Source: Anaerolineae bacterium (GTDB taxonomy: Bacteria; Chloroflexota; Anaerolineae; DRVO01). From it: a stretch of DNA of 64,000 nucleotides. The position numbers and the translations under genes were made by a program. Numbering within the stretch: the first letter of the stretch is position 1; each line of letters opens with the position of its first letter. The notes beneath the pieces were generated by a model. It saw only the letters and a program-made list of their open reading frames with translations, was not told where the DNA came from and made no database searches. The stretch spans positions 3,395 to 67,394 of the forward strand of contig JBMNTK010000002.1 in assembly GCA_050945695.1 (NCBI GenBank), in the 5' to 3' direction. This document shows, one piece after another, positions 10,523-57,305 of the stretch.

Positions 10523-10535
10523 GGCCACCCCCTGA

Positions 10536-21341: not shown

Positions 21342-21344
21342 ATC

Positions 21345-34321: not shown

Positions 34322-34352
34322 TTCATAGGAACTTCATATGTTTTTCATAAGA
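34322..34352. promoter_or_regulatory. Three direct TTCATA repeats at ~12-bp spacing upstream of the adaptor gene
   Basis: cTTCATAggaacTTCATAtgtttTTCATAag in an AT-rich stretch 50-80 bp upstream of the start at 34403. Confidence 0.3.
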
Positions 34353-34402
34353 ACCCAACGCCGCCCCACCATACTCACGTCAGCCTCTCTGCCGAGGGCG
34401 CA

Positions 34403-35938
34403 ATGAGACGCAGGAAGAAGAACCGCACCTACATCGTGGCCCTGGGCTTGGTGGCGGTGGCCGCCCTGGCTGTCGGCGCCTGGTACTACCGGGACGGAAA
34501 GACACCCGGTGCCGCCGCCACCGCACCCGCCATGCGCACTGCCCGCGCCCGTTTGGGCGACATGCGCATCTCCCTCACCGGTGCCGGCTCGTTGGTCGCC
34601 GGGGCCGAGATGGACATCGGCTTCGAGACCAGCGGCCGAGTGGCGGAGGTCCTGGTGCAGCTGGGCGATCGGGTAGAGGCAGGCCAGGTCCTGGCTCGGC
34701 TGGATCGGGCGGATGCCGAGGGGCAGGTGACGCAAGCTGAGCTGGCCCTCAGGCTGGCCGAGCTGAAACTGGCCCAACTGGACGAGGGGCCGGATGCCGA
34801 CGAGGTCGCCACCGCTCGGGCTAACCTGGCCACAGCGCAGGAGAACCTGGCCTCCCTGCAGGCGGGCCCCGCCGAGGAGGAGCTGGCCACGGCCCGGGCC
34901 GCTCTGGCCGCCGCCGAGGAGAAGTACCGGGAGTTGCAGGCCGGGCCGTCGCAGGAGAAGGTCCTCGCCGCCCAGGCCAGCCTGGAGAACGCCCGCCTGT
35001 CCCTGCAGCAAGCTCAGATAGACTACGCGGACGCAGCCCAGGACCCGGAGAGAAGCGCCGCTGCCCTCGCCGCCTATGAGAGAGCCCGGCGCGAGTACGA
35101 GGTGGCCCAGGCCAGCTACGACGCTGCCATGGAGGGTGCCAGCGAGTCCGAGCTGCAAAGCGCTCTGGCCCAGGTGACTCAGGCGCGCACCAACCTGGAG
35201 AAGCTCCTCGCCGGCCCGACAGCGGCCGAGATCGCCTCCGCCGAGGCCCAGGTGGCGTCCGCCCAGGCCAAACTGGACGCTCTCCTGGCCGGGCCGACGG
35301 ATCTGGAGAGGGAGAGCGCCGCCCTGGAGGTGGAGAAGGCGCGCTTCAGCCTGGAGCAGGCCAAGCGTCAGCTGGAGGCCACCGAACTCAAGGCGCCCAT
35401 CTCCGGCACCGTCACCGCGCTGGATCTGACCGTCGGGCAGACGGTGGGCACGGGCACCGTCGTCAGCCTGGCCGACCTCGACCACGTCCAGGTGCGCTTC
35501 TACATAGACGAGACCGAGATGAGCCTCCTGGCCCAGGGCCAGGAAGTGCAGGTCACCTTCGATGCCCTTCCCGACCAGCGCTTCACCGGCCAGGTGACCC
35601 GCATAGAGCCAGGCCTGAAGAACGTCTCCGGGGTGCCAGTGGTCACCGCCTGGGCCAGCCTGGAGGTTCCCGAGGACAGCCAAGTCAAGTTCATGGGGGA
35701 CATGAACGCCGCCGTGGAGGTCATCGCCGCCGAGCGTCAGGGAGCCGTGCTGGTGCCCATGGAGGCAGTGCGAGAGATGGGGGCCGGCCAGTACGCCGTG
35801 TTCGTGGTGAGGCCGGACGGCGAGCTGGAGCTGCGCCCGGTTCAGGTGGGCCTGAGCGATAACCTATACTATGAGGTTGTCAGTGGTCTTGAGCCCGGCG
35901 AGGTGGTCAGCACCGGCACAGTGGAGACAGGCCTCTGA
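34403..35938 (+). CDS. HlyD/MacA-family periplasmic adaptor with long coiled coil
   Basis: N-terminal TM, ~200-aa Ala/Glu/Leu-rich coiled coil, C-terminal beta-barrel/lipoyl-like segments ('ISGTVTALDLTVGQTV'). Confidence 0.75.
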   Translation: MRRRKKNRTYIVALGLVAVAALAVGAWYYRDGKTPGAAATAPAMRTARARLGDMRISLTGAGSLVAGAEMDIGFETSGRVAEVLVQLGDRVEAGQVLARLDRADAEGQVTQAELALRLAELKLAQLDEGPDADEVATARANLATAQENLASLQAGPAEEELATARAALAAAEEKYRELQAGPSQEKVLAAQASLENARLSLQQAQIDYADAAQDPERSAAALAAYERARREYEVAQASYDAAMEGASESELQSALAQVTQARTNLEKLLAGPTAAEIASAEAQVASAQAKLDALLAGPTDLERESAALEVEKARFSLEQAKRQLEATELKAPISGTVTALDLTVGQTVGTGTVVSLADLDHVQVRFYIDETEMSLLAQGQEVQVTFDALPDQRFTGQVTRIEPGLKNVSGVPVVTAWASLEVPEDSQVKFMGDMNAAVEVIAAERQGAVLVPMEAVREMGAGQYAVFVVRPDGELELRPVQVGLSDNLYYEVVSGLEPGEVVSTGTVETGL

Positions 35939-35987
35939 TCCCCTTGCCGATGCACAGGCCAACACCTTGGAGTGAGGAGAACAACGC

Positions 35988-37172
35988 ATGAAAGCCATCG
36001 GGCGATGGTTGCCGTCAATAGCATTGCTTATCGTGGCACTGGCACTCCGGCTTGAGCTGGCCCCGGAGTCAGGTGGATCCTCGGTGTCGTCGGCGCAAGG
36101 TGCCGTAGCTACCGCCACGCCAGTGCAGACCGCGGATCCTGTGCCCGAGTCCGAGGCAGCAAACGCTCTGGAGGCCCAGATAACCGCCGTCTACGAGCAG
36201 GCTGCCCCGGCTGTAGTCAACATAACCAGCCGGCGCATCGTCACCGACTTTTTCCTGCGGGCCATCCCCCAGGAGGGCAGCGGGTCCGGCTTTCTGTGGG
36301 ACGATGAGGGACACGTGGTCACCAACTACCACGTGGTGGGGAATGCCCAGGACATCCTGGTGACCTTCGCCGACGGGCGCACCTACGAGGCCGAGGTGGT
36401 AGGGGTGGATGCCACCAATGACCTGGCCGTCCTCAGGGTGGCGGCCGATGCCGACCTTCCCCAGCCACTGACCCTAGCCGACGCCTCCCAGTTGCGGGTG
36501 GGGCAGTTCGTCCTGGCCATCGGCAATCCCTATGGCCTCGACCACACCCTCACCGTGGGCGTCATCAGCGCCCTGGAGCGAGTGATCGAGAGCCCGGAGG
36601 AGTCTGGCTTCATCGGTGAGGCCATCCAGACCGATGCCGCCGTCAACCCGGGCAACTCGGGCGGACCCCTCCTGGACCTGCGCGGGCGCGTGGTGGGGGT
36701 CAACTCCCAGATCATCAGCCCCAGCGGCGCCTCGGCCGGCATCGGTTTCGCCGTGTCGGCCAACACCGTAGCCCGGGTCGTGCCCGCCCTGATCGAGCAG
36801 GGCTACTACGATCACCCCTGGCTGGGCATCGAGACGGTGGATCTGACCCCGTCTGTCATTCGCATCCTGCGGGAGGCGGGCATGGACGTGCCGGTGGACG
36901 CTGGGCTCATGGTGCTGGGCGTCTACCGGGGCTCCCCGGCAGGGCAGGCCGGTATCCAGGGGGCGCAGAGGCAGGTTCTGGTTGGCCGGTACCGCGTCCC
37001 GGTGGACGGGGACATCATCACCGCCGTCAACGGGGTGCCGGTCAAGAACGAGGAAGAGCTCACCGTCTACCTGGAGACCAAGACCGTTGTGGGCGACACC
37101 GTGGAGCTGACGGTGATCCGCAACGGGGCCGAGCAGCAGATCGCGGTGACGGTCGCCGCCAGTCCCCAGTGA
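35988..37172 (+). CDS. HtrA/DegP-family serine protease with one PDZ domain
   Basis: Catalytic His 'TNYHVV', Asp 'TNDLAVL', Ser 'GNSGGPL'. Signal/TM at the N-terminus. C-terminal PDZ-like region. Confidence 0.8.
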   Translation: MKAIGRWLPSIALLIVALALRLELAPESGGSSVSSAQGAVATATPVQTADPVPESEAANALEAQITAVYEQAAPAVVNITSRRIVTDFFLRAIPQEGSGSGFLWDDEGHVVTNYHVVGNAQDILVTFADGRTYEAEVVGVDATNDLAVLRVAADADLPQPLTLADASQLRVGQFVLAIGNPYGLDHTLTVGVISALERVIESPEESGFIGEAIQTDAAVNPGNSGGPLLDLRGRVVGVNSQIISPSGASAGIGFAVSANTVARVVPALIEQGYYDHPWLGIETVDLTPSVIRILREAGMDVPVDAGLMVLGVYRGSPAGQAGIQGAQRQVLVGRYRVPVDGDIITAVNGVPVKNEEELTVYLETKTVVGDTVELTVIRNGAEQQIAVTVAASPQ

Positions 37173-37224
37173 CTGAGCCCCGTGGCAGGGCAGGCGTCGC
37201 CCCAATCGCCGGTATGGATCGAAG

Positions 37225-38004
37225 ATGAAGCCGAAACCCAGTTCTCTCGACAACGAGGCAGTAGCCACCAGCAGCCTGGACGTGGGCGTGGTCTCCGACG
37301 ACCGGCTCTCCCCGGTCGTCGAGACCCGGGGCGTGAGCAAGGTGTACCGCATGGGTCCGGTGGAGGTCAGGGCTCTGCACAACATTGACCTCAGGATCGC
37401 CCGGGGCGACTTCGTGGCCGTGATGGGCGCCTCCGGGTCCGGCAAGTCCACTCTCATGAACATCCTTGGCTGTCTGGACCGCCCCACCGAGGGAACCTAC
37501 CTCCTGGAGGGGCAGGATGTGAGCGAGCTGGACCGGGACGAGCTGGCCCTGATCCGCAACGAGAAGATCGGCTTCGTCTTCCAGCGGTACAACCTCCTGC
37601 CGCGCCTGAGCGCCCTCAAGAACGTGGCCCTGCCCCTGCTCTACTCCCCTGACGGCCACGGAGAGGACGAGGAAGGCCCCGAGGAACGAGCCCAGCGAGC
37701 CCTGGAGGCGGTGGGACTGGGGGACCGCGCCCATCACCGGCCCAACGAGCTTTCCGGCGGGCAGCAGCAGCGGGTGGCCATAGCCAGAGCCCTGGTCAAT
37801 GACCCGGCCATCATCCTGGCCGACGAGCCCACCGGCAACCTGGATAGCCGCGCCGGCCACGAGATAATGGCCCTTCTGGAAGGGCTGAACCGGCAGGGGG
37901 TGACCCTCATCGTCGTCACCCACGAGGACGACATCGCGGCCTACGCCCGGCGGGTCGTGCGCCTGCACGATGGAGAGATCGTCGCCGACGAGGTGAGAGG
38001 ATGA
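37225..38004 (+). CDS. MacB-type ABC transporter ATP-binding protein
   Basis: Walker A 'GASGSGKST', signature '[15 protein letters not shown]'. Confidence 0.85.
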
Positions 38005-39248
38005 ACACCTGGCGGACCTTACAGACAGCCTGGGAGGGAGTGGCCGCCAACAAGATGCGCTCCTTCCTCACGGTGCTGGGGGTGGTCATCGGGGTGGCAG
38101 CCGTGATCCTGATGGTAGGGGTCAGCAAGGCCACCGAGGCTGCCATCGCGGACACCATCAACAGCCTCGGCTCCGATCTGATCATCGTCAGCTCCGCTCG
38201 CTTCGGTCCCATGTTGGTCACGCGAGGCGGGATGTACGGTGGCAGCAGGGCTGGCCTCACCTACGACGACGCTGTCGCCATCTCCCAGGAGGTGAGAGGA
38301 ATCGAAGGGGTCGCCCCGGAACAGATCATGCCCGGGCAGACCGTCCGCCATGACAGAGCCACCCTGACCACGCTCCTGGTGGGCACCACCGCCGACTACC
38401 CCATCGTGCGCGATGTGGAGGCGGACGAGGGCCGCTTCCTCACCGAGCAGGACTTGGAGCGCGCGAACAAGGTGGCCGTGCTGGGACACGCCGTGGCCGA
38501 AGAGCTCTTCCCTCAAGGCGACGCCGTTGGCCAGAGCATCACCGTGGGCCCGAATAACGTCAGGCTGACAGTGGTGGGAGTCATGGCCAGCAAGGGCACC
38601 GTGGCCGAAACGGACTACGACAACCGCATCTACGTCCCCATCACTCTGGTGTTCCAGAAGCTCATGCCCTCCCCCATGGCGGTCATGATCGGCAACCCCC
38701 TGAGCTCCCTCTACGTCAAGGCCGAGAGCCAGGAGACCATGGGTTCAGCCATCGCCCAGATAACCTCACTGCTGAACAAGCGCCACAACATCGTGGGTGA
38801 GCCTGATTTCCAGGTCCAAACCCAGGACGACATCATCAAGACGCGACAGGCGACCAGCTCCTCCTTTCGCAGCCTGCTGGCCTGGGTGGGGGCCGTGTCC
38901 CTGCTGGTGGGCGGGATCGGCATCATGAACATCATGCTGGTCTCGGTGACGGAGCGCACCCGCGAGATCGGCATCCGCCAGGCCATCGGCGCCCGGCCCG
39001 GAGACATCCGACGGCAGTTCCTGCTGGAGGCGCTCATCCTCAGCCTGGGCGGGGGGCTCATCGGACTGGCGGCCGCCTACGCCATTGCCAGTTACGCCGG
39101 CACCCTGGGCGGCATGCGGGTGCTGATCGTGCCGGACTCGGTGGCCCTGGCCTTCGGGGCGGCCTCGGCGGTGGGGATCTTCTTCGGGTTCTACCCGGCT
39201 AACCGCGCCGCCAACATGGACCCGATCGAGGCGCTTCGCTACGAGTGA
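38001..39248 (+). CDS. MacB-type ABC permease (FtsX domain with large periplasmic domain)
   Basis: TM1, ~230-aa periplasmic domain, then a C-terminal 3-TM FtsX module. Overlaps the ATPase stop. Confidence 0.8.
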   Translation: MNTWRTLQTAWEGVAANKMRSFLTVLGVVIGVAAVILMVGVSKATEAAIADTINSLGSDLIIVSSARFGPMLVTRGGMYGGSRAGLTYDDAVAISQEVRGIEGVAPEQIMPGQTVRHDRATLTTLLVGTTADYPIVRDVEADEGRFLTEQDLERANKVAVLGHAVAEELFPQGDAVGQSITVGPNNVRLTVVGVMASKGTVAETDYDNRIYVPITLVFQKLMPSPMAVMIGNPLSSLYVKAESQETMGSAIAQITSLLNKRHNIVGEPDFQVQTQDDIIKTRQATSSSFRSLLAWVGAVSLLVGGIGIMNIMLVSVTERTREIGIRQAIGARPGDIRRQFLLEALILSLGGGLIGLAAAYAIASYAGTLGGMRVLIVPDSVALAFGAASAVGIFFGFYPANRAANMDPIEALRYE

Positions 39249-39390
39249 TCAGGCCAGTCCCGTGCGCTTCCTCCTTCTGGGAAGAAGGGGAGACCCTCAA
39301 GCGGCCCTGCATCCGGGCAGGCGACTTCACATACGAGGGACGGGGAACTCATGAAAAGGACATACGTCATAGCAGCCGTTGCGCTGGTAG

Positions 39391-40383
39391 GTGCTGGGGG
39401 GCCGGCCGGTGGGGGCCATTATCCTGCGGCCGCCGGAGAACCCTGAGAACGGCAACCGCGAGAGCTCCTTTCTCAGCTCGGTGAACCGATCACTGCTGGT
39501 TTCGGTGGCAGTCACTGGATCGGCGGCGGTCCTGCTTGCCCTGGGGCTTTCTCGTCGCATCCTCCGGCCGGTAGAGGCGCTCACGCAGGCCGCCCGGGCC
39601 GTGGGCGCCGGGGACTTGAGCCGACGGGTGGGGGTGACCACCGACGACGAGATCGGCGAGCTGGCCCAAGCCTTCAACTCCATGGCCGAGAGCCTGGCCC
39701 GCCTGGAACAGCCCCGACGCAACCTGGTCACCGATGTTGCCCACGAACTCCGCACGCCCCTATCTAACGTGAGAGCCTACCTGGAGGGCATGTGCGACGG
39801 CGTCATCGAGCCCTCCCCAGAGGCCATCGCCTCCATCTACGAGGAAGCCCTCCTCCTGAGCAAGCTGGTGGACGATCTGCAGGAGCTCTCCCTGGCGGAG
39901 GCAGGCGCTATGAAGCTGCATCGTCGGCCTCTGGCCCTGCTGGAGACGGTCACCAAGGCCCTCGCCGCCGCCAAGGGCATCTCCCTGGCAACTGACCTCC
40001 CGCCGGACCTGCCCCTGGTGGATGCCGACCCGGATCGGGTGGGCCAGGTGCTGCGCAACCTCCTTAGCAACGCCGTGGCTCACACCGCCACGGGTGGTCA
40101 CGTCCTGGTGAGAGCGAGGCCGTCCGGCGCCGAGGTCCAGGTGACAGTGCAGGACGACGGGGAGGGCATCCCGGAAAAACACCTGCCTCACATCTTCGAC
40201 CGGTTCTACCGCGCCGACGACTCCCGGGCGCGAACCACCGGCGGCTCGGGGCTAGGCCTGGCCATTGCCCAGCAACTGGTACAGGCGCACGGCGGCCGCA
40301 TCTGGGCCGAGAGTACCGAAGGCGAGGGATCCCTGTTCCACTTCACCCTGCCGATTGCGCCGGGAGACGCGGAGGTGGAGTGA
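39391..40383 (+). CDS. Sensor histidine kinase (HAMP-HisKA-HATPase); N-terminus probably extends to ATG 39351 via a frameshift
   Basis: H-box 'VAHELRTPL', N/G boxes. Upstream ATG 39351 encodes a perfect TM1 (MKRTYVIAAVALVGAGG) in the +1 frame across a G6 run. Confidence 0.7.
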   Translation: MLGGRPVGAIILRPPENPENGNRESSFLSSVNRSLLVSVAVTGSAAVLLALGLSRRILRPVEALTQAARAVGAGDLSRRVGVTTDDEIGELAQAFNSMAESLARLEQPRRNLVTDVAHELRTPLSNVRAYLEGMCDGVIEPSPEAIASIYEEALLLSKLVDDLQELSLAEAGAMKLHRRPLALLETVTKALAAAKGISLATDLPPDLPLVDADPDRVGQVLRNLLSNAVAHTATGGHVLVRARPSGAEVQVTVQDDGEGIPEKHLPHIFDRFYRADDSRARTTGGSGLGLAIAQQLVQAHGGRIWAESTEGEGSLFHFTLPIAPGDAEVE

Positions 40384-40512
40384 GGGGGCGCCAGCGGTCG
40401 GCTGAGGCTTCGCACCGGGATCACCCTGCTTGCCCAGCCGCGGTCCAGCTCCTACATTGATATCTGTCGCTTATGTAACCGATCCGCTGGCATCCATCGC
40501 CGGAGGGGACTG

Positions 40513-41662
40513 ATGGAGCGCGATCCCCGGCGCTACCCAGACTTCGAGTTCAACCTGCGGGAGCTGGCCGGCTCCATGGGGGACTTCGGCACCCTCTTCC
40601 CCCTGGCCATCGGCCTCATCGCCGTCAACGGCATGGATCCCACCGGCCTCTTCGTCATGCTGGGGCTCACCAACATCGCCACCGGGCTTATCTACCGCCT
40701 GCCCATGCCGGTGGAGCCCAAGAAGGTGGTCTCGGCCGCCGCCATCGCCCAAGGGTGGCCCGCCTCGACCGTGGTGGCCTCCGGGCTGGGGCTGGGCCTG
40801 ATCTGGTTCGCCATCACCGCCACCGGGGCCGTGCGGCGGCTGGTGCGGGTGACGCCCGTCTACATCATCCGCGGCATCCAGCTGGCCTTGGGCGTGAGCC
40901 TGGCGCTGGGGGCGATAGAGATGTCAGTCCCCGAGCCCTGGCTCATGCTGGTTGCCCTGGCCATCATCTTTCTCTTCCGTCGCAGCCCTTACGCCCCCTC
41001 GGCGCTGGTGATCATGGCCCTGGGCGTGGGCATCATGGCCCTACGCGGCGACCTGGCCGGGCGGGTGGCGTTCTCGCTCTCCCTGCCGGCCTTCTCGGTC
41101 CCTACCCTAAGAGACGTCTGGAACGGGCTGCTCTGGGCCGGATTCGCCCAGATTCCCCTCACCCTCACCAACGCCGTCCTGGCCACCGCCACTATGATCC
41201 GGGACCTATTCCCGGAGAAGCCGGTCTCGGAGGAGCGGCTCATGGTGAACATGGGAGCCATGAACGTGGCCGCCTCCTTCTTCGGCGGGATGCCCATGTG
41301 CCACGGCTCCGGTGGCCTGGCGGGGCAGTACTACTTCGGGGCCCGCACCGGCGGCACCAACATCCTGGAGGGGCTGATCGAGGTTGCTCTGGGCGTCCTC
41401 CTGGGTCGGTCCCTCCTGGACCTGCTGAGCGCCTTCCCCATGCCCCTGGTGGGCGGGATGATGCTGGTGGTGGGCTTCCAATTCGCTCGGCCGGTGCTCA
41501 AGCTGCGAGGGGTGCCGCTGGCCCTATGCCTGCTGACGGCAGCCGTCTCCGTGGCCACGAACATGGCGGTGGGGTTCGCCGTCGGCCTGGGAGCGGCCCA
41601 CCTGCTGCCTCGCCTTGGGCTGCCTGCCCCGCAATCACCCTCACCTAAGGAAGCGCAGCCGC

Positions 41663-41676
<14 letters not shown>
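40513..41676 (+). CDS. MOT1/SulP-like anion (molybdate/sulfate) transporter family protein
   Basis: N-terminal 'FNLRELAGSMGDFGTLFPL' matches the MOT1-family motif. ~10 TM. Confidence 0.5.
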
Positions 41677-42642
<966 letters not shown>

Positions 42643-42646
<4 letters not shown>

Positions 42647-43386
42647 AGGCTCAACTGCTGCGCGCCTGGTACATCTGCCGCAAGGACCTGCGGGCCTATT
42701 ACCGCAAGCCGCCCCTCATCAGCTGGGGCCTGATGTTCCCCGCTGCCATGGTGCTGGCTTTCTACCTGCGCAATCCGGGCGACATCGGCCAGATGGTGCC
42801 TGGCCTTATCGGCATTACCCTTCTCTTCGGTGCCACTTCCATGGAAGTGGTGGCCATCGCCTTCGAGAAGCGCATCGGCGCTCTGGAGCGGCTGGCCATG
42901 GCCCCGGTGTCCGTGGCCACCATACTGCTGGGCAAGGTGGCGACCGGCGCCATCTTCGCCCTGGTCCTGGGAGCGGTGGTGACCCTGGTAGCACTGACCT
43001 TCACCGGGGTTCCGGCCCTCTCGGCTGGGCTCCTGCTGTCGCTGTCAGTGACCCTGATCCTTGGCTCAGTGGTCTTCTCGCTCCTCGGGGCCTTCGTGTC
43101 GGTGGCCGTCAAGGAAGTGTTCGACGCCATGACCCTGGCCAACTACTTCCGCTTCCCCATGCTCTTCCTCTCCGGCACCTTCGCGCCGCTGGCCGCCACG
43201 CCCGACCTGCTACGGTGGCTGGCGTATCTCATGCCCCTGACCTACGTGGTAGACGCCCTTCGCCACGCCCTCCGACTGCCGGCAGCCGTGCCCCTGGTGC
43301 TGGACTGGGCGGTGGTGTTAGGCTTCACCGTGCTGCTGGCCTTGGGCACCGGGCGGACCTTAGTCCGTCAGTTGGAGGAGCCATAG
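42643..43386 (+). CDS. ABC-2 family permease (DrrB-like)
   Basis: 6-TM ABC-2 profile. ATGA overlap with the ATPase. Confidence 0.75.
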
Positions 43387-45326
43387 TGAGAAGCCGTCCA
43401 CCAGCTCCATCACCGGGCTCGGCAGGAGCCGAGGGACCACCGGCCATTCGCTCGCCCGGTAGCGGAAGCGGCCCAGGGCGGACAGGCCAGCCCCAGCGCC
43501 CAGTCTGGCCCACCGCGCGCCGACTGCTGGGGTACATGCGACCCGAGGCCTGGCGCTTCGCTGGGATGCTCGTGGCCCTGCTGGCCTCTAGTGCTATCGA
43601 GCTGGCCCCGCCCTGGCTCACCCGCTACGCCATTGACACGGTCATCCCCGCCGGTGTGCCGCGGGATATCTGGCTGATCGCCTTGGCCATTGTAGGGGTC
43701 TCCCTGATCCAGGGTCTGGTGGACTTCGTACGGTTGTACCTTTCGGCCTACACCGGCCAGCGCATCATCTTTGGCATCCGCACTGCCCTCTTCGAGCACC
43801 TTAGCCGCCTCTCGTTCTCCTTCTACGACCAGGCTCGCACCGGCGACCTGATGTCACGGGTCACCGCTGACGTGGATGCGCTCAGCCGGTTCTTCACCCG
43901 GTCCAGCATCGTGGTAGTCACCAACGTTCTGACCATCCTGGGCATCCTAGTCGTGGTGCTCACCTGGGATCCACGGCTGGCACTCCTCTACCTGCTCATG
44001 ATCCCCTTTATGGCGCACGCCATGTGGGTCTACGCTCGCCGGGTACGCCCCGCGTTCACCCAGGCCCGTCAGCACCTAGCCGCTCTCAGTGCCACGTTGC
44101 GTGAGAGCCTGGTGGGCATACAGGTGGTGAAGCTCTTTGGGGCCGAGCAGTACGAGGCGGCCAAGGCCGCGGCCGAGAGCCACGCCTACCGCCAGGCCAA
44201 CGTGGAGGCCGCTCGGACCTCCTCGTTCTGGATGCCATATACCCAGGTTCTGGTGGCCGCTTTCACCGGAATCGTCCTCTGGTACGGGGGCTGGCAGGTG
44301 ATTCGGGGCTCCATCTCCCTGGGTATGCTGGTCGGTTTCAGCAGCTACCTGGCCATGCTCATCCGGCCCATCCGCCAGACGGGCATGATGCTGTCGTCCG
44401 TTCTCCAGGCCGTCGCCGCGGCGGAGCGGGTGTTTGAGGTGCTGGACACCGAGCCCCAGATCCAGGACGCACCTGGCGCCTACGACCTGCCCCGCCCGAC
44501 GGGATGGGTCCGCTTCGATGGTGTCAGTTTCGCTTACGCCGGGGACCAGCGGGTGCTGGACGGGGTCAGCTTCGAGGCCAAACCCGGGCAGATGGTCGCT
44601 CTCGTGGGGCCATCTGGCGCCGGCAAGACCACGGTGGTGCACCTGATCCCCCGCTTCTACGACGTGCAGGAAGGCGCTGTCACCATCGATGGCCACGACG
44701 TCCGCTCGGTCACCGTCAGGTCTCTGCGAGATGCGGTCGGGATAGCCATGCAGGACGCTTTCGTGTTCGACGCCTCTTTGGGCGAGAACATCGCCTACGG
44801 CAATCCCCATGCCACGCAGGACGAGATAGAGTCAGCCGCCCGTGCAGTGCAGCTCCATGACTTCATCGTCTCCCTGCCTGAGGGCTACGACACCCCGGTG
44901 GGTGAGCGGGGCGTGCAGCTATCCGGTGGCCAGCGTCAGCGCCTGGCCCTAGCTCGCGTACTGCTGAAGGACGCACCCATCCTGATCCTCGACGAGCCCA
45001 CCTCGAGCGTAGACGCCGCTACCGAGGTGCAGATGCAGCAGGCACTGGACCGGGTCCGCCAGGGCCGCACCACATTCGTCATCGCTCACCGGCTATGGAC
45101 GGTCCAGCGGGCCGACCAGATCCTGGTGCTGGCGGGAGGGCGCATCGTAGAGCGCGGCGAGAGCAGAGATGGCCGCTCTGCCCACGAGATGCTCGTGGCG
45201 GCCGGCGGGCTGTACAGCGACCTAGTTCGCCAACAGACTCGGGATCTAGCCACCGGAAGCATCACCGGGCAGGGGCAACCGCAGACAGCGGGGCCGGAAG
45301 GTGGCTCCGAGGAGGTGCGGCCATGA
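43386..45326 (+). CDS. ABC exporter, fused TMD-NBD, with ~45-aa Pro/Gly/Ser-rich N-terminal extension
   Basis: GTG overlapping the upstream TAG. Canonical 'ARRLLGYMRPEAWRF' then 6 TM. Walker A 'GPSGAGKTT', signature 'LSGGQRQRLALAR'. Confidence 0.8.
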   Translation: MRSRPPAPSPGSAGAEGPPAIRSPGSGSGPGRTGQPQRPVWPTARRLLGYMRPEAWRFAGMLVALLASSAIELAPPWLTRYAIDTVIPAGVPRDIWLIALAIVGVSLIQGLVDFVRLYLSAYTGQRIIFGIRTALFEHLSRLSFSFYDQARTGDLMSRVTADVDALSRFFTRSSIVVVTNVLTILGILVVVLTWDPRLALLYLLMIPFMAHAMWVYARRVRPAFTQARQHLAALSATLRESLVGIQVVKLFGAEQYEAAKAAAESHAYRQANVEAARTSSFWMPYTQVLVAAFTGIVLWYGGWQVIRGSISLGMLVGFSSYLAMLIRPIRQTGMMLSSVLQAVAAAERVFEVLDTEPQIQDAPGAYDLPRPTGWVRFDGVSFAYAGDQRVLDGVSFEAKPGQMVALVGPSGAGKTTVVHLIPRFYDVQEGAVTIDGHDVRSVTVRSLRDAVGIAMQDAFVFDASLGENIAYGNPHATQDEIESAARAVQLHDFIVSLPEGYDTPVGERGVQLSGGQRQRLALARVLLKDAPILILDEPTSSVDAATEVQMQQALDRVRQGRTTFVIAHRLWTVQRADQILVLAGGRIVERGESRDGRSAHEMLVAAGGLYSDLVRQQTRDLATGSITGQGQPQTAGPEGGSEEVRP

Positions 45327-47125
45327 GCATGCGCGGGGGATTCATGGGCCGGATGCGGGGCCAGGAGGAGAGCTACCGTCTCTCTCAGCTGGACCGGAGG
45401 GCCCTGGGGCTGTTGTGGGGGTACCTGCGTCCCTACCGTGCGAAGCTGCTGCTGGTCCTGGTGGCCCTGGCCGTTCTCACCGGTACCGGCTTGCTGGGCC
45501 CCTATCTGACCAAGGTAGCCATAGACTCCTACATCGCCGTGGGGGACTTGGCCGGGCTGAGCCTCATTTCCTTGCTCTACCTGCTGGTCGGAGGCCTTCA
45601 GTGGGGGGCCAGCTACTGGCAAGGCTACCTCTCCAGCCAGGTGGGCCAGGGCATCATCCACGATCTGCGATCTGACCTCTTCGATCGAGTGCTGCGCCAG
45701 TCAGTGCGCTTCCACCGCGAGGAGCAGGTCGGCCAGGTGATGTCCCGCCTGACTAACGACGTCAATACCCTAGCCGACGCGGCCACCAGCACGTTTCTGG
45801 GCCTGATCACCGACGTGCTGAGCCTAGGTGGCGTCGTGGTCGTCTTGCTGCTGCTCAACTGGCGCCTGGCCCTGGTGACGTTCGTGGTCATGCCCGTGGT
45901 CGTGCTGACCATGGCCCTTATGGGCAGGCGGATGCGGCACGCCTACCGGGATGTGCAGCAGGAACTGGCTGCCGTCAGCGCCGGGGTGGAGCAGGGCGTA
46001 TCGGGCATGCGGGTAACCCAGTCGCTCTCCGCGGAGTCCTACAGCGTGGAGCAGTTTGAGGACCTCAGCCTGCGCAACCTCCGCGCTAACCTGCGGGCCA
46101 GCCTGCTCACCGCTGCCCTGTCCCCTACCATGAGCATCACCGGCAGCCTGGGCACAGCCCTGGTGCTGGGCTACGGCGGGGTGCAGGTGGCGACGGGAGC
46201 CATCACCGTCGGCGTGCTCATGGCTGCCCTGGGTTACGTGCGTCGTTTCTTCGGCCCCTTGCGGGAACTCAGTCTGGTGTACAACACCTTGCAGGGAGCT
46301 GCCGCCTCTTTGGATCGGGTCTCTGACTACCTCGATCGGCCAGTGGAGGTGGAAGAACCGGAACATCCCCAGCGTCCGGCGGGCGGGTTTGTCGGCCGGG
46401 TGGATGTGGATCACGTCAGCTTCAGCTATGGCCGGGAGAAGGTCCTAGAGGACGTTTCCCTGACCATCGAGCCGGGTGAGGTGGCGGCGCTGGTGGGGCC
46501 GACGGGTGCCGGGAAGAGCACCCTCGTGAACCTTGTCACTCGCCTGTACGACGTGCAAGAGGGACGGGTGGCGTTGGACGGTGTGGATATCCGAGATATC
46601 GCCTTCGCTGACTTGCGGCGGCTCATAGCCGTGGTGCCGCAGGACACCTTCCTCTTCGACGGCAGCATTGGTGACAATATACGCTACGCCCGACGCGAGG
46701 CCACCGACGCCGAGGTCGAGGCGGCTGCCCGGCAGGCCCAGGCGCATGAGTTCATCTCCCGGCTGCCCCAGGGATATGAGACTCAGGTCGGTGAGGGTGG
46801 GGTGCGGCTCTCCGGAGGCCAGAAGCAACTGGTCGCCCTGGCCCGAGCCATGCTGGCCGACCCCACCATCCTCATCCTGGACGAGGCTACCTCTCACGTG
46901 GACGCCCACACCGAGGGTCTGATCCAGGCGGGCATGGAGGAGCTGCTGCGCGGGCGCACGGCTCTCATCATCGCCCACCGCTTCAGCACCCTGAAACGGG
47001 CGGATCGGATCTACGTCATGGAGGCGGGGCGAGTAGTCGCCCAGGGCACCCATGAGCAACTGCTGGAGATTAGCCCCACGTACCGCGACTTGGCTCAGAA
47101 GCAGTGGGTGGGGAGTGATACGTGA
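45323..47125 (+). CDS. ABC exporter, fused TMD-NBD (partner)
   Basis: ATG overlapping the upstream TGA, after GGAGGTG. Walker A 'GPTGAGKST', signature 'LSGGQKQLVALARAM'. Confidence 0.85.
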   Translation: MSMRGGFMGRMRGQEESYRLSQLDRRALGLLWGYLRPYRAKLLLVLVALAVLTGTGLLGPYLTKVAIDSYIAVGDLAGLSLISLLYLLVGGLQWGASYWQGYLSSQVGQGIIHDLRSDLFDRVLRQSVRFHREEQVGQVMSRLTNDVNTLADAATSTFLGLITDVLSLGGVVVVLLLLNWRLALVTFVVMPVVVLTMALMGRRMRHAYRDVQQELAAVSAGVEQGVSGMRVTQSLSAESYSVEQFEDLSLRNLRANLRASLLTAALSPTMSITGSLGTALVLGYGGVQVATGAITVGVLMAALGYVRRFFGPLRELSLVYNTLQGAAASLDRVSDYLDRPVEVEEPEHPQRPAGGFVGRVDVDHVSFSYGREKVLEDVSLTIEPGEVAALVGPTGAGKSTLVNLVTRLYDVQEGRVALDGVDIRDIAFADLRRLIAVVPQDTFLFDGSIGDNIRYARREATDAEVEAAARQAQAHEFISRLPQGYETQVGEGGVRLSGGQKQLVALARAMLADPTILILDEATSHVDAHTEGLIQAGMEELLRGRTALIIAHRFSTLKRADRIYVMEAGRVVAQGTHEQLLEISPTYRDLAQKQWVGSDT

Positions 47126-47172
47126 TACGTGACGCGTGAACCGGTCACGAGTCACGCATCACGTATCACGCG
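47117..47172. repeat. Perfectly symmetric heptamer-array palindrome (4x GTGAYRC + 4x complement)
   Basis: gtgatac|gtgatac|gtgacgc|gtgaacc|ggtcacg|agtcacg|catcacg|tatcacg. It overlaps the last codons and stop of the ABC exporter gene. Confidence 0.75.
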
Positions 47173-47242
47173 TTACCTTCTCGGATCTGCCGCGATATAG
47201 TTATTAGAGGGTGCACCCGCCGTGGCGCCGAGAGAGGTAGCG

Positions 47243-47818
47243 ATGCCGAGCCTGTCACTGGCCCATCAACTGACCGAAGCCTCCGAGCAGGAGGACGCCT
47301 CGCTGGTGCGGGCCGCCCAGCGCGACCGGGCTGCCTTTGCCCCTCTCTACGACCGCTACGTGACCCGGGTCTACCGCTACCTCTACTCCCGCATCGGGGA
47401 CGCCCACGCGGCCGAGGATGCTACCGCCCAGGTCTTCACCGAGGCCCTGGCCGGCCTGGGCGGCTACCGGGAGCAGGGCCGCTTCGCCCCCTGGCTCTTT
47501 AGCATCGCCCGCCGCCGGGCCGCCGACTACCACCGCCGCCGCGACCACGCCCCCCTGGAGGCGGCCCTGGCCCAGCCCGGCGAGCAAGACCCCTTGGCCA
47601 AGCTGGTGCGCGAGGAGGAGCTGCGGCGCCTGGCCGAGCTGGTGGGAGCGTTGGACGAAGAGGCGCGTGAGCTTCTGCGGCTGCGCTTTGCCGCCGGGCT
47701 CACCTATGGCGAGATCGGCGGGATGCTGGGCCGGAGCGAGGACGCCGTCAAGATGGCCGTGCACCGGCTGCTGCGCCGCCTGCAGCGATCTTGGGAGTTG
47801 ACCGATGGCCCCCAGTGA
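47243..47818 (+). CDS. ECF-type RNA polymerase sigma factor
   Basis: Sigma-70 region 2 ('YDRYVTRVYRYLYSRIG...AEDATAQVF') and region 4 ('LTYGEIGGMLGRSEDAVKMAVHR'). Confidence 0.8.
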   Translation: MPSLSLAHQLTEASEQEDASLVRAAQRDRAAFAPLYDRYVTRVYRYLYSRIGDAHAAEDATAQVFTEALAGLGGYREQGRFAPWLFSIARRRAADYHRRRDHAPLEAALAQPGEQDPLAKLVREEELRRLAELVGALDEEARELLRLRFAAGLTYGEIGGMLGRSEDAVKMAVHRLLRRLQRSWELTDGPQ

Positions 47819-50093
47819 GATAACCGATGGCGAAATACAGGCCACCGAAGGGGCCCTGGCGAGGTTGTTTGCCGCCCCTCAGCCCGATGAGCGGTTCGTG
47901 CGCGATCTCAGGGAACGTCTCCTGGCCTGCCCTGAGGCCGGGGCCGCGTCGCCGCGAAGGGGCCTGAGCCGACTTGGCGCCATCCTCAGGACCTCAACTA
48001 GGCGTCGCGCCTGGGCGGCGGCAGGGCTCGCCCTGGCCTTGGCCCTGGGCCTGGGAGTGGCCCTGGTGGGGCCGGCCCAGGTGCTGGCAGAGCTGGGCCG
48101 GCTGCGGGGCTACCTCTTCGGCGTGGGCTTTGTGGACCTGGAGGGGACCCGGGCTCTCCTGGCTCCCGTCTCCGTGACCCGCGAGGGCGTCACCCTTACC
48201 GTGGAGCAGCTGCTGGCCCAGCCAGACCGGACGGTCGCCCGTATCCGGGCCGAGGGGCTGCCCTTGGTGACCCATGAGCTGGGCTTCCAACTGCGCCTGC
48301 CCGATGGGCGCACCCTCGACCCCACCGGCTGGAGCGCTCGCCAGGGCGAGGCCACCGTTGACTTCCCACCCCTGCCGGAGGACGTCTACCGGGTGGACCT
48401 GCTTGTGGGACTGCCGGGCATGGCGCCAGAGACCTGGGAGGTCGCCCTAGGGCTGCATCCCACCACAGGAGAGATGATGGTTGCCGGATACACCACCCCC
48501 TACACCCCTGAGGACGCGAGTGATAGCCACCAGAGCCACACCCTGCGGCTGCTGGAGGTGGCGCAGGGTGCGGAGAGCACGGCTCTGAACCTGGAGATCA
48601 CCTGGCCCGATGCCGCGTGGCGCTTCCCCCGGCTGGACCGCGAAGGGCGCGTGGCCCTGCGGGATGACCTGGGACACGTCTACTACGAGGGGGTGCTGCC
48701 TTCAGCCGCCAGCCTGACGGCGAGCAGGCGGGTGGCGGTGGCCATTGAGAGCCACTTTGCCGACCCGACCGCCGCCCCCACTCCTGCCCCGGACGTGGCG
48801 CGCGAGCTGCGCACCATCACCTTTGGTCCAGTCTCACCCTCGGCGAGCCGTCTGACCCTCACCGTGGACGCCCTTACCTTCAGCGTCCCCGTTGATGCCC
48901 AGTTCACCTTGGACCTGGGAGAGGATCCGCAGTTGGGCCAGGAGTGGCCGCTGGATGTGTGGCTGGAGGTGGCCGGGCTGCCCCTGCACATCACCGGGGC
49001 CCGCCTGCAGACCAACGATTCCGAGGGCGAAGATGAGCCCCCCTTCGCCCTGGTGCTGAATACCGATCCCCTGCCCAGCCAGGATGGACGCAGCCTTTCC
49101 GGCCTGTCCTTCAGTGCCCTCGTCGAGGGGCACCGGGGATCCCGAGGCAGCTACGACCCGCGCACCCGGGCCCTGGAGACGGCTCTTCTCTTGGAGACCC
49201 TGCCTCGGGGCAGGATCGCCATCCAGGTGGGCGGGCCTGGGTACGGGGCGGACGTGAGCCTGCATGGTCCCTGGGTGATCACTTGGGAAGTGCCCGGTGG
49301 GCCGCCGGTGCCGGTGCCGCCGCTGTCGCTGCGCCCTGAGGCCTCGCAGACGCGTGATGGGCTGACGCTGCGCATAGAGCAAATGACGGTGACCGACCGG
49401 CTGAGCGCCGTTACCCTGGGCATGGAGCCGGGGCCGGACGGGGAGACGCTGGTGGGGGTGGGGGCCCGGCTGCCGGGTAGTGACCAGGCCGACCTCTACC
49501 ACCTCACCGACGAGCGCGGCAACCGCTACGATCCCGGGCTGACGCTGGGATGGGAGCCGGCCGAGAGCCCGGAGTTCAACCCTCACCGGCTGCTCTTCCC
49601 GCCGCTTCCACCCCTGGCGGGGCAGGTGAGCTTCCACGCCCCGGCCATCGTGGTCCTGCGGCCGGCGCCCGCCACGCTTGAGGTGACGGTGCCGCAGGGG
49701 GTGCGCGAGGGAGGGACCTGGCCGGTGGACGTGACTCTGTCTGTGGGGGGCCACGATGTTCATTTCACCGAGGCCCGGCTGCAGAACCAACTGGTGACAC
49801 TCAGCGCCGACGCGAGGGACCAGGCGGACCACGGGGGGCGGCTTCTGGCCGGCCTTTCCCTGAGCTCGGTGATCGGGCCGGATGGTGTGGAGCGTCCGCT
49901 GGCCACCAGCGCTCTCCTAATGGAGCAGTTCAGCCAGGTGGTCACCTTCCAGGGCCGGAAGCTCCTGTTGGTGGGCTTCAGTGCCGGGACCGGCGGCGGG
50001 CTCATACGCCCCGGCACCTACCGGGTGCAGGTGGCGGGGGTTAACGAGGCCGTGCCCGGGCCCTGGGAGCTGACCTGGCAGATGCCGCAGTAG
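47805..50093 (+). CDS. Putative anti-sigma factor: short cytoplasmic N-terminus, single TM, ~660-aa repetitive extracytoplasmic domain
   Basis: Start overlaps the sigma stop. TM 'WAAAGLALALALGLGVALVG'. Ectodomain shows repeated modules ('G.TL..EQ...DR', 'WP.DV.L.V.G....T.ARLQ'). Confidence 0.55.
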   Translation: MAPSEITDGEIQATEGALARLFAAPQPDERFVRDLRERLLACPEAGAASPRRGLSRLGAILRTSTRRRAWAAAGLALALALGLGVALVGPAQVLAELGRLRGYLFGVGFVDLEGTRALLAPVSVTREGVTLTVEQLLAQPDRTVARIRAEGLPLVTHELGFQLRLPDGRTLDPTGWSARQGEATVDFPPLPEDVYRVDLLVGLPGMAPETWEVALGLHPTTGEMMVAGYTTPYTPEDASDSHQSHTLRLLEVAQGAESTALNLEITWPDAAWRFPRLDREGRVALRDDLGHVYYEGVLPSAASLTASRRVAVAIESHFADPTAAPTPAPDVARELRTITFGPVSPSASRLTLTVDALTFSVPVDAQFTLDLGEDPQLGQEWPLDVWLEVAGLPLHITGARLQTNDSEGEDEPPFALVLNTDPLPSQDGRSLSGLSFSALVEGHRGSRGSYDPRTRALETALLLETLPRGRIAIQVGGPGYGADVSLHGPWVITWEVPGGPPVPVPPLSLRPEASQTRDGLTLRIEQMTVTDRLSAVTLGMEPGPDGETLVGVGARLPGSDQADLYHLTDERGNRYDPGLTLGWEPAESPEFNPHRLLFPPLPPLAGQVSFHAPAIVVLRPAPATLEVTVPQGVREGGTWPVDVTLSVGGHDVHFTEARLQNQLVTLSADARDQADHGGRLLAGLSLSSVIGPDGVERPLATSALLMEQFSQVVTFQGRKLLLVGFSAGTGGGLIRPGTYRVQVAGVNEAVPGPWELTWQMPQ

Positions 50094-50267
50094 GGGATCA
50101 ATCGAAGAGACCGCTGAGATCGCGGAGAATGGATCAACAATGAGCAGGGCCCGGCGGCTGAGCCAGGCCCTGCTTCTCTTTTCTGCGTCTGCTCTGCGCC
50201 CTCTGCGCTCTCTGCGGTTAGATAGCCCCGTGCGGGCTGGTCATGTGCAGGGCGAGGTAAGGTATAG

Positions 50268-51818
50268 CTAGCCCACCCGCTTCATGGTGACTGCCGAGCG
50301 CATCAGCTCCACGAACTCCACCACGTCGGGGTCATCGGGCAGGAGGGGAGCCACCCGACGGGCCTCCTCCAGGACCCCGGACAGGGTGCTATCCTGGGCC
50401 CAGTAGCTCTCGCGCAGGACCTCGGCGCACTCGGCCACCACTACATCCCACTGGAACCGGGGCGAGGCAGCATCGAAGGCGTCCTGCATCTCCTCGGTGG
50501 TGAAGTCCCGGCTGATCTCGGTGACCTCCTGGGTGTCTGGATCGGCCCAGCGCAGGTAGACGGTGGCGATCCTGCCTTCGGCGTCGGGGTGTAGCTTGAT
50601 CTCGTAGAGGGCGGTGACGTTGTGGCCGGCGCCGATCTCTCCGGCGTCCACGCTGTCGTCTCGGAACTTGTCGTCCTCGATGGCGCGGTTCTCGAACCCG
50701 ACCAGCCGGTAGCGCGAGACTACCTCGGGGCTGAAGTCCACCTGCACCTTGGCGTCCTGGGCGATGATCTGCAGGGTGCTGGTGAGGTTATCGAGGAACA
50801 GGCGCCGGGCCTCGTTGAAGGTGTCCACGTAGGCGTAGAAGCCGTCGCCCTTGTCGGCCAGTTGCTCCATGAGCACGTCGTTGTAGTTCTCCATGCCGAA
50901 GCCCACCGTGGTGAGGGTGATGCCCTCGGCGGCATACTCCTCGATCTCCGCCAGGATGGAATCAGCCCCAGTCTGGCCCACGTTGGCCACCCCATCGGAG
51001 CAGAGGATAACCCGGTGTATGCCCTCCTTGTGCATGGCCTCGGCGGCCATCTGGTAGCCCAGCCGCAGCCCCGCCTCGGCATTGGTGGCCCCTTCGGACT
51101 GGAGGCGCTGGATGGCTCTCGTGATGGTCTCTTTCTCCTCGCCGCTAGTTGGCTCCAGCACGACCCGGGCGTCGTCGCCGTACACCACGATGCTCACCGA
51201 GTCCGTGGGCCGAAGCTGATCCACCAGCAACTGCAGGGAGCGCTTGACCAGCCCCAGCCGGTCTTCCATGTCCATGGAGCCGGAGACGTCAATCACGAAG
51301 GTCAGGTGGACGTCTTGACGCTCGTCCGCGGGAACGGCATAGCCCTGGATCCCGATCCGAATCATCTGGTAGCGCTCGGTCTGGGAGAAGGGGACGGGGG
51401 CGCCGTCCACGTAGATGGCGAAGGCGTCGCCGGCGGCCGGGTAGTCGTAGTCCTGCCGGAAGTAGTTGACGAACTCCTCCACCCGGACCGCGTCCTTGGG
51501 CGGGAGGTTGCCCTGGTGGATGTAGGAGCGGGTTATGGTGTAGGAGCCGGTGTCCACGTCCAACGCGAAGGTGGAGAGGTGGTCATCCTCGGTGTCAATG
51601 GAGGGGTTGACGCCGTAGTTCTCGAAGAACGTGTCCGCGTAGGGCTTGTCATTCGGTGGTTGCAGGCCCCAGTCCCCTGCCTCTTGGGAGACGGGTGCCG
51701 GCTGACTGAGTGACCCCCGAAGTTGCCCGGTGACTCCGGGTGCTCCGGCGCAGGCCAAGAGTATCAACGCCAGCACCAGACTCAGTAAGGCGACCGTCCT
51801 GCGCGCGGATGTGGACAT
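50268..51818 (-). CDS. Secreted/lipoprotein von Willebrand factor A protein (YfbK-like)
   Basis: Lipobox 'LLAC'. N-terminal YfbK-type domain. VWA MIDAS 'DVSGSM' ... 'SDG'. ATG at 51818 after AAGGAGAAG. Confidence 0.7.
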   Translation of the reverse strand: MSTSARRTVALLSLVLALILLACAGAPGVTGQLRGSLSQPAPVSQEAGDWGLQPPNDKPYADTFFENYGVNPSIDTEDDHLSTFALDVDTGSYTITRSYIHQGNLPPKDAVRVEEFVNYFRQDYDYPAAGDAFAIYVDGAPVPFSQTERYQMIRIGIQGYAVPADERQDVHLTFVIDVSGSMDMEDRLGLVKRSLQLLVDQLRPTDSVSIVVYGDDARVVLEPTSGEEKETITRAIQRLQSEGATNAEAGLRLGYQMAAEAMHKEGIHRVILCSDGVANVGQTGADSILAEIEEYAAEGITLTTVGFGMENYNDVLMEQLADKGDGFYAYVDTFNEARRLFLDNLTSTLQIIAQDAKVQVDFSPEVVSRYRLVGFENRAIEDDKFRDDSVDAGEIGAGHNVTALYEIKLHPDAEGRIATVYLRWADPDTQEVTEISRDFTTEEMQDAFDAASPRFQWDVVVAECAEVLRESYWAQDSTLSGVLEEARRVAPLLPDDPDVVEFVELMRSAVTMKRVG

Positions 51819-52054
51819 AGCTTCTCTTCTCCTTGTCTGCCGGCTGCGGGGGACCCAGCTCACGATGTCGGACAGCTCTTTGGCTGATAGACGCAATCCC
51901 CCCGACGGGAGTTCCCCCCGTTCACCAGGTTACCATCAGGCAGGTCGGCTGCCTACCGCCCACATGGGCTATACGGGCCGTTGCCGAGATTTGGCAACGA
52001 GGCGAAGTCGTGCTATATTGAGATCATACATAGATGAGGAGGTGATATAGTAGA

Positions 52055-55440: not shown

Positions 55441-55441
55441 C

Positions 55442-57303: not shown

Positions 57304-57305
57304 GC

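Follow-up and report, generated by a model that had tools for sequence, protein, structure and literature searches.

Positions 34403-50093 of a 64,000-nucleotide stretch of contig JBMNTK010000002.1 from an uncultured Anaerolineae bacterium (positions 3,395 to 67,394 of the contig; hereafter the window, G+C content 63-72%) raise the question of whether a long run of same-strand transporter and regulator genes is one dedicated export system or a set of neighbours. Thirteen open reading frames (ORFs) lie on the forward strand of this array, and the ORF calls and Pfam agree with the domain families that an initial annotation had given them, among them a MacA-like adaptor, an HtrA-type protease, a MacB-type pump, a histidine kinase, a MOT1-like anion transporter, DrrAB-like and heterodimeric ATP-binding cassette (ABC) exporters, and an extracytoplasmic function (ECF) sigma factor with an anti-sigma factor. 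The same annotation had read the array as a single supercluster under one ECF/anti-sigma pair. The comparison of about 180 related loci with the array indicates instead that it probably consists of three autonomous units in a row, plus a deletion scar, in a part of the genome that varies locally, and is not one dedicated system. Unit 1 (34322-40383) comprises the adaptor, HtrA and MacB genes with the kinase remnant behind them, unit 2 (40513-47125) the MOT1, DrrA, DrrB, ABC1 and ABC2 genes, and unit 3 (47170-50174) the sigma and anti-sigma genes.

Gene order of the array in related loci

Two samples carry the comparison: 80 loci of GTDB genomes around MOT1 homologues of 50-76% identity, searched by tblastn with all window proteins, and 80 metagenome loci around HtrA homologues. 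Individual loci are given L numbers; the closest relative sampled is represented by L172 and L176, two contigs of one sample, and L172 is approximately 87% identical to the window at the nucleotide level. Domain families were called with Pfam, and equivalog and subfamily assignments were judged by NCBIfam cut-offs. With the exception of one small clade, the order of the whole array was missing from these 160 loci, and outside that clade unit 2 never adjoined unit 1 or unit 3. None of the 80 MOT1-homologue loci carried the adaptor, HtrA, the ECF sigma factor, the anti-sigma factor or the von Willebrand factor type A (vWA) protein encoded next to the array. The neighbourhood comparison had been set beforehand as the test that could refute a single supercluster, and the gene order of the array as a whole is not conserved across relatives; the claim is not upheld.

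Stop and start codons overlap at the MacB ATPase/permease, MOT1/DrrA, DrrA/DrrB, DrrB/ABC1, ABC1/ABC2 and sigma/anti-sigma junctions, whereas gaps of 102-142 nucleotides (nt) occur at the MacB permease/kinase, kinase/MOT1 and ABC2/sigma junctions. The coupled starts described for the array exist at the six overlapping pairs. Intergenic gaps across the array are 49-149 nt long, and folding of 39245-39392 and 40375-40515, which span the gaps at 39249-39390 and 40384-40512, showed nothing beyond shuffled controls. The shared strand is weak evidence for a single system because the 13 genes amount to about three transcription units, for which a common strand is expected by chance with a probability of approximately 0.25. 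The adjacency of units 1-3 would then reflect modular gain and loss between the HtrA and vWA genes in one small clade, with no shared function.

Table 1. Features of the array and its flanks (window coordinates, unless a related locus is named; aa, amino acids)
Feature	Position	Strand	Description
Triple TTCATA-N5 direct repeat	34322-34349	+	11-bp spacing; 55-80 nt upstream of adaptor gene
Membrane-fusion adaptor (HlyD/MacA/YknX-type)	34403-35938	+	511 aa; Pfam HlyD_D23, HlyD_3
Membrane-anchored HtrA/DegP-type serine protease	35988-37172	+	394 aa; Pfam Trypsin_2, PDZ_2
MacB-type ABC ATPase	37225-38004	+	Pfam ABC_tran; best NCBIfam match MacB N-terminal half
MacB-type permease	38001-39248	+	Pfam MacB_PCD 155 bits, FtsX 79 bits
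Deletion scar	39249-39390	+	142 nt in place of ~1.9 kb in L172
Histidine kinase remnant, 5'-truncated	39391-40383	+	Second transmembrane (TM) helix, HAMP, HisKA, HATPase
MOT1/SulP-like anion transporter	40513-41676	+	Pfam MFS_MOT1 172 bits (gathering score 30)
DrrA-like ABC-2 ATPase	41663-42646	+	Pfam ABC_tran; 14-nt overlap with MOT1 gene
DrrB-like ABC-2 permease	42643-43386	+	Pfam ABC2_membrane
ABC exporter subunit 1 (ABC1)	43386-45326	+	Pfam ABC_membrane+ABC_tran; no peptidase domain
ABC exporter subunit 2 (ABC2)	45323-47125	+	Pfam ABC_membrane+ABC_tran
Long hairpin of GTGAYRC heptamers	47106-47178	+	Over ABC2 stop codon; -50 kcal/mol, z = -6.1
Conserved promoter-like motif GCGTTACCTT-N13-CCGATATA	47170-47199	+	45-75 nt upstream of sigma gene
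ECF sigma factor	47243-47818	+	191 aa; Pfam Sigma70_r2, r4_2 (regions 2 and 4 only)
Putative single-pass anti-sigma factor	47805-50093	+	762 aa; no Pfam match
Terminator	50143-50174	+	GC-rich hairpin, then UCUCUUUUCU (U-rich run); between convergent anti-sigma and vWA genes; z = -3.1
vWA/YfbK-like protein, secreted or lipoprotein	50268-51818	-	Stable right-hand anchor of variable region
PadR regulator	52055-52474	+	Pfam; sigma-70-like site at 51991-52019
Conserved coiled-coil ORF	52419-52676	+	85 aa; overlaps PadR end
Gene X, in L172	5469-6161
Gene X, in L175	13442-14161
Gene X, in L100	16049-16855
Gene X, in L130	7237-7974

The adaptor-HtrA-MacB operon

The adaptor scored 160 bits against the NCBIfam RND_mfp model (cut-off 95) and is 90% identical at the amino acid level in L172. 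The HtrA motifs TNYH, DLAV and GNSGGP were read in the protease sequence, and the start of the MacB permease gene overlaps the ATPase stop by 4 nt. MacAB-type pumps with a membrane-fusion adaptor are represented by E. coli MacAB-TolC, B. subtilis YknXYZ and S. pneumoniae Spr0693-0695 (PMC5985334, PMC8277102). Unit 1 resembles them in its HlyD/MacA-type adaptor, its MacB-type ATPase and its permease with MacB_PCD and FtsX domains; the precomputed Pfam matches of the adaptor also include YknX-type barrel domains, and the cognate adaptor lies in the same operon as MacB, an order repeated in L172, L175 and L178. It differs from them in that the ATPase and permease are encoded by separate genes and in that an HtrA gene stands between adaptor and ATPase, with a further gene, X, added in relatives. 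No NCBIfam equivalog model reached its cut-off, those for the E. coli proteins included (MacA, 130 against 342 bits; MacB, 278 and 229 against 966 bits). No TolC-family duct was seen among the screened genes of the window, a screen not aimed at one and confined to these 64 kb. The Chloroflexota are in general considered to have a single membrane.

Placement of HtrA between adaptor and MacB was found only in the window, L172 (HtrA 88% identical), L178 (75%) and L175 (70%); in more distant relatives the protease is encoded beside the pump rather than within it. Across the 80 HtrA loci it is often near an adaptor-MacB-MacB set and a regulator-kinase pair in variable order, and a MacB or kinase gene shares its strand in 9 of the 21 loci that have at least 5 kb on both sides. 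L100, for example, reads regulator-kinase-HtrA-adaptor-adaptor-MacB-MacB-X, whereas L130 and others read adaptor-MacB-MacB-X...HtrA, and regulator, kinase and HtrA genes are adjacent in L100, L114, L162 and L163. Adaptor, MacB, HtrA and a two-component system are a real, recurrent neighbourhood of Anaerolineae, and it is plausible that this neighbourhood is an envelope-stress module. The proposal of such a module thus survives, as plausible, for the first four genes and the kinase and not for the whole array.

In at least 11 Anaerolineae loci the MacB permease gene is followed by the gene for protein X. The protein is 230-270 aa long (230 in L172), begins as a lipoprotein or with a transmembrane segment, contains the motif LALGTxxLE..AVTPEQAAxLLPLWQ, matches no Pfam family, and may be an unrecognised accessory of the pump. 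Upstream of the operon, the TTCATA triplet has 0.02 matches expected by chance in the window; it is kept in L172 (190-217), and similar triplets precede the regulator gene in L100 (7559-7586) and the adaptor gene in L151 (3745-3772). By analogy with the direct-repeat sites of OmpR-family regulators, the repeats are a candidate binding site for such a regulator. The window retains this box although its regulator gene is deleted. A leader peptide was also considered for the 22-codon ORF reported ahead of the adaptor gene; the ORF is present at 34339-34407, but the 87%-identical relative has ACG in place of the ATG, and the candidate was rejected as its start codon is not conserved.

Envelope-stress two-component systems tied to HtrA or to efflux include BaeSR, CpxAR-DegP, CssRS-HtrA and MprAB-PepD. 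The likeness to these systems lies in the OmpR-type regulator and the HAMP kinase with external sensor that adjoin HtrA and the pump in relatives, and in the 11-bp-spaced direct repeats upstream of the unit 1 operon. A regulator and kinase beside HtrA, as in CssRS and MprAB, were met in L100, L114, L162, L163 and L172; the window keeps the kinase remnant only. In relatives, the genes that come next in the operon encode lipoprotein X, an OmpR-type regulator and a kinase whose external sensor spans approximately 125 aa. There, the kinase would sense envelope or secretion stress and the phosphorylated regulator would bind the TTCATA repeats and switch on pump and protease; the MacB pump would expel material from the outer face of the membrane via the adaptor, and HtrA would degrade misfolded exported proteins.

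A deletion between the MacB permease and the kinase

Window positions 34285-39248 align by blastn with L172 153-5409 and positions 39391-40388 with L172 7327-8342, so that the breakpoints 39248/39391 correspond to 5409/7327 in L172. Missing from the window are approximately 1.9 kb, with the entire response regulator gene, most of X and codons 1-116 of the kinase. What is left of X is a 31-codon ORF from 39351 (MKRTYVIAAVALVGAGG...), which starts MKRTYVIAAV... where the L172 protein starts MKRSYWIAGG..., and what is left of the kinase matches residues 117-450 of its 452-aa counterpart in L172. The regulator, X, ArsR and the kinase N-terminus were found nowhere else in the window. The initial annotation was right that no response regulator is encoded there, the gene having been deleted with the 1.9-kb segment. 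Because the deletion took X, the regulator and the kinase sensor, the operon of the window would be cut off from its signal.

The kinase had been described as a sensor of BceS/LiaS style with a loop of approximately 22 aa between two TM helices. This topology does not hold: the first helix comes from the beginning of X, the frame of ATG 39351 differing from that of the kinase ORF at 39391, and in the orthologous kinases of L100, L114, L162 and L163 an external domain of approximately 125 aa separates the two helices. The short stretch ahead of HAMP in the remnant is only a superficial likeness to BceS/LiaS kinases. In contrast to BceS/LiaS systems, there is no BceAB-type permease or adjacent regulator, and the neighbouring permease is of MacB type with a single FtsX domain. 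The best NCBIfam match of the remnant was BaeS (261 bits against a cut-off of 500, aligned from model position 136), of which it is not an orthologue. A programmed frameshift in the kinase gene was rejected, since 1.9 kb is missing and not one base.

The size of the loss also counts against a rival reading, in which an error of assembly or sequencing in the kinase region hides an X-regulator-kinase set that is intact in the real genome. The junction does lie inside a G-rich, error-prone run (GCTGGGGGGCCGG), but the scar sequence is identical in five assemblies, namely the window and four contigs from four different samples and assemblers, and an artefact is extremely improbable.

The MOT1-DrrAB-ABC exporter operon

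MOT1 homologues number in the thousands, the best 120 being 62-91% identical to the window protein. For prokaryotic PF16983 proteins, a role in molybdate transport has been deduced solely from their similarity to plant MOT1 (PMC5840216). In the MOT1 sample, DrrA-DrrB genes immediately follow MOT1 in 23 of 67 testable loci, ABC1-ABC2 genes (>50% identity) immediately precede it in 12 of 52, and both arrangements are combined in 8 of 45. ABC1 orthologues of 59-66% identity adjoin MOT1 in other Anaerolineae. An ArsR-family gene precedes the unit in approximately 25 MOT1 loci and a PadR gene is nearby in nine. The usual order is ArsR-ABC1-ABC2-MOT1-DrrA-DrrB, compared to MOT1-DrrA-DrrB-ABC1-ABC2 without ArsR in the window, and unit 2 is a permuted copy of the usual set minus its repressor gene; with its overlapping starts and stops, it is probably one five-gene operon. 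The ArsR-type unit may serve repressor-controlled efflux or detoxification. The six-gene unit was observed across Anaerolineae (L024, L040, L042, L047, L051, L054, L070, L072, L073 and others), and in some Deltaproteobacteria loci (L076, L077) MOT1 and DrrAB genes are likewise close to one another.

The known systems closest to unit 2 are DrrAB-type ABC-2 exporters and heterodimeric ABC exporters controlled by PadR or ArsR repressors, LmrR-LmrCD among them. Unit 2 shares with them an ABC_tran+ABC2_membrane pair and two ABC_membrane+ABC_tran half-transporters, and ABC1-ABC2 are preceded by a PadR gene in L173, L092, L031 and L032 and by an ArsR gene in many loci. In contrast to the known systems, the pump genes of unit 2 overlap starts and stops with the gene of a MOT1/SulP-like transporter; ABC1 and ABC2 both have canonical Walker B-Glu and signature motifs, with no degenerate site; and the window operon has no repressor gene, the PadR gene being 5 kb away. 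No NCBIfam equivalog model was reached at cut-off by the ABC exporters. The drrA subfamily model gave 299.5 bits against 312.45 and the drrB model 78 against 223, both below cut-off, and the general ABC-2 fold was recognised. ABC1 probably starts at GTG 43386, which overlaps the DrrB stop and has GGAGGA 6 nt upstream.

The hairpin over the ABC2 stop codon belongs to a dispersed intergenic palindromic element built on GTGAYRC, with 11 pattern matches in the window compared to 0.06 expected and further copies at 10532-10612 and 13797-13823. It is missing at the same position in L173 and L092. A scan of the whole window with Rfam gave no RNA family at threshold. The hairpin is likely to be a transcription-unit boundary between the ABC2 and sigma genes.

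The ECF sigma factor and its putative anti-sigma factor

The sigma and anti-sigma genes overlap by 14 nt, and the sigma start ATG 47243 is conserved. The putative anti-sigma protein has a short helical N-terminus, a TM helix at approximately residues 66-88 and an all-beta ectodomain made of a duplicated two-domain unit. An AlphaFold2 model of it (predicted local distance difference test [pLDDT] 76, predicted template modelling score [pTM] 0.67) shows two N-terminal helices, one TM helix and an all-beta ectodomain; the N-terminal helices were modelled at a pLDDT of approximately 57-66 only, and no anti-sigma Pfam domain matches them. The repetitive ectodomain of the initial annotation was borne out by hhalign, in which residues 328-505 match 600-762 (probability 99.6%, E = 2e-24); profile comparison was needed for this, as a BLASTP self-comparison of the protein gave no repeats. 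The best PDB match was 3fbq (E = 4.6e-5), other fold matches being generic Ig-like and uninformative, and the anti-sigma profile gave no match against PDB sequences. The protein is identical to the NCBI metagenome-assembled genome (MAG) protein ACOYEW_00555.

ECF sigma factors with a single-pass anti-sigma factor whose ectodomain is a beta-sandwich are known from Firmicute DUF4179/DUF5643 proteins and RsiV-type regulators (PMC6066255, PMC7826278). Unit 3 is like them in having a sigma factor of regions 2 and 4 and an overlapping gene for a protein with short cytoplasmic helices, one TM helix and a large all-beta ectodomain; moreover, 3fbq is from B. anthracis and a homologue, P0006, carries PF18705. 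It differs from them in that the anti-sigma protein has no Pfam match or zinc-binding HxxxCxxC and in that the ectodomain is duplicated.

Only 21 homologues (protein clusters) of the anti-sigma factor were found in a collection of 5.8 billion proteins, those with source names coming from Anaerolineae, and each one examined was paired with an ECF sigma gene. The neighbours of the pair vary: sugar ABC importer and sulfatase genes in L011 (70% identical), a GNAT acetyltransferase gene in L177 (69%), and other ECF pairs in L007-L010. Compared to L175, the sigma pair of the window is a 3.1-kb indel exactly between ABC2 and vWA. Five orthologous loci whose upstream genes differ share the promoter-like motif and the 5' leader without variation. 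The window has a single copy of the motif, which also lies upstream of the sigma gene in L011, L092, L173 and L177; in L173 and L092 it is found solely there. A scan for sigma-70 promoters and terminators gave weak, near-chance matches, except for the PadR-side sites and the site after the anti-sigma gene. Judged from its sequence, unit 3 is an autonomous cassette with a promoter-like motif and a terminator of its own, and we infer that it regulates itself.

Gain and loss of modules in the small clade

The right-hand anchor of the variable region is the vWA gene, 82% identical in L173, L175 and L176, with left neighbours that differ in each; the left anchor in close relatives, formed by transaldolase-MFS genes, is absent from the window. 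L173 and L092 carry HtrA, PadR, a small ORF, (an ArsR remnant), (a DrrB 3' remnant), ABC1-ABC2, the sigma pair and vWA. L175 carries unit 1, X, ArsR-DrrA-DrrB-ABC1-ABC2 and vWA with no sigma pair. L172 reads adaptor-HtrA-MacB-MacB-X-regulator-kinase and then an unrelated gene, and L176 reads ArsR-MOT1, vWA, an fn3 protein and DrrA... The remnants of L173, at approximately 6930-7660, are a frameshifted ArsR gene and a DrrB 3' end immediately upstream of ABC1; together with the scar of the window, they indicate repeated deletions. At 16618-20245, L175 shares 72% nucleotide identity with ABC1-ABC2, yet the stretch contains small ORFs only, being either pseudogenes or the product of assembly indels.

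Absence of a substrate gene

The claim that no precursor-peptide ORF is present was substantiated, the small ORFs being only the non-conserved 22-codon leader ORF and the 31-codon X remnant; no precursor peptide gene was found in the whole 64-kb window. The Pfam-screened window genes, which are transporters and hydrolases, include no peptide-modification enzyme, and none of the window transporters has a C39 peptidase domain, ABC1 and ABC2 matching ABC_membrane and ABC_tran only. A cluster for export of, and immunity to, a ribosomally synthesized and post-translationally modified peptide or a bacteriocin was therefore rejected, there being no precursor gene, C39 exporter or modification enzyme. 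The missing substrate gene needs no special explanation because the modules are generic efflux and quality-control modules with no C39 domain and no modification enzymes.

Alternative explanations for the array

That all 13 genes make up one peptide or toxin export/immunity or envelope-stress system, sensing through an intramembrane kinase and the ECF pair and acting on a substrate encoded elsewhere, would account for the co-directional genes, the several overlapping starts and stops, the protease inside the MacB operon and the partial adjacency seen again in L175 and L173. It is, however, very unlikely in view of the missing gene order in the sampled loci outside the small clade, the autonomous and separately mobile sigma pair, a kinase that is a deletion remnant with its regulator deleted, ABC exporters lacking a C39 peptidase domain, and the lack of a precursor gene or modification enzyme in the window. 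Mechanistically independent modules might instead be kept between HtrA and vWA as a clade-specific envelope island for co-inheritance or coordinated expression, from which genomes then lose pieces. HtrA, ABC1-ABC2 and vWA are indeed a backbone common to the window, L173/L092 and L175, and the ArsR and DrrB 3' remnants upstream of ABC1 in L173, with the scar of the window, would indicate loss from a larger ancestral array. This explanation is unlikely, since unit 1 is apart from MOT1 and vWA in L172 and L176, no module is indispensable throughout the clade, the modules are unlinked outside it, and the window is transporter-rich in general.

Several points weigh against the preferred interpretation of three autonomous units. 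L175 joins unit 1, most of unit 2 and vWA, and L173 joins ABC1-ABC2, unit 3 and vWA, so some selective or regulatory benefit of clustering is conceivable. Read-through across the gaps of 102-142 nt is possible. The regulator box and the promoter are putative assignments made from motifs, and a search for an exact pattern could miss degenerate ECF sigma targets. The kinase remnant is 88% identical to its full-length L172 orthologue with all kinase motifs kept; because of this, either the loss is recent or the remnant is still constrained, and together with a regulator encoded elsewhere it may still work to some extent. A more far-reaching reading, which we consider rather unlikely, is that in one Anaerolineae clade HtrA and, in relatives, X are parts of a two-component-controlled MacB machine that extracts and degrades misfolded or toxic envelope proteins in a bacterium with probably a single membrane, and that, separately, the ArsR-ABC1-ABC2-MOT1-DrrAB unit is an undescribed efflux system linked to oxyanions or metal(loid)s.

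The main value of these findings is corrective: transporter and regulator genes lined up on one strand of a high-GC MAG mimicked a dedicated secretion/immunity system with a missing substrate. By-products for Chloroflexota biology are the MacB-HtrA-X-two-component neighbourhood with its candidate regulator box and the ArsR-ABC-MOT1-DrrAB unit; neither alters current understanding unless backed by experiment. A literature search found nothing on MacB+HtrA operons, DUF5643 anti-sigma factors in Chloroflexota or bacterial MOT1 clusters.

Genes flanking the array

The convergent vWA gene and the PadR gene divergent from it were both present as first described. In contrast, the DUF5320 label given beside PadR was not backed by Pfam, neither small ORF there matching any of its families at E ≤ 0.001. 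The coiled-coil ORF is conserved at 75-85 aa (also in L173, 6709-6936) with the C-terminal motif ERIxxLExYLxxLRLEAQAVEERLAxLR, and in L173 and L092 the PadR and coiled-coil ORF pair lies upstream of ABC1-ABC2. The 106-aa ORF at 51730-52050 is probably not a real gene.

The rest of the window is transporter-dense in general. It encodes a MATE pump (3279-4934, +), a second ABC_membrane+ABC_tran exporter pair (19533-23084, +), a second ABC-2 pair (28839-30862, -), an Opp importer, an MFS transporter and several hydrolases. Two URO-D-family paralogues (52699-53772, -; 60578-61594, -) flank an oligopeptide-type ABC importer (54445-60273).

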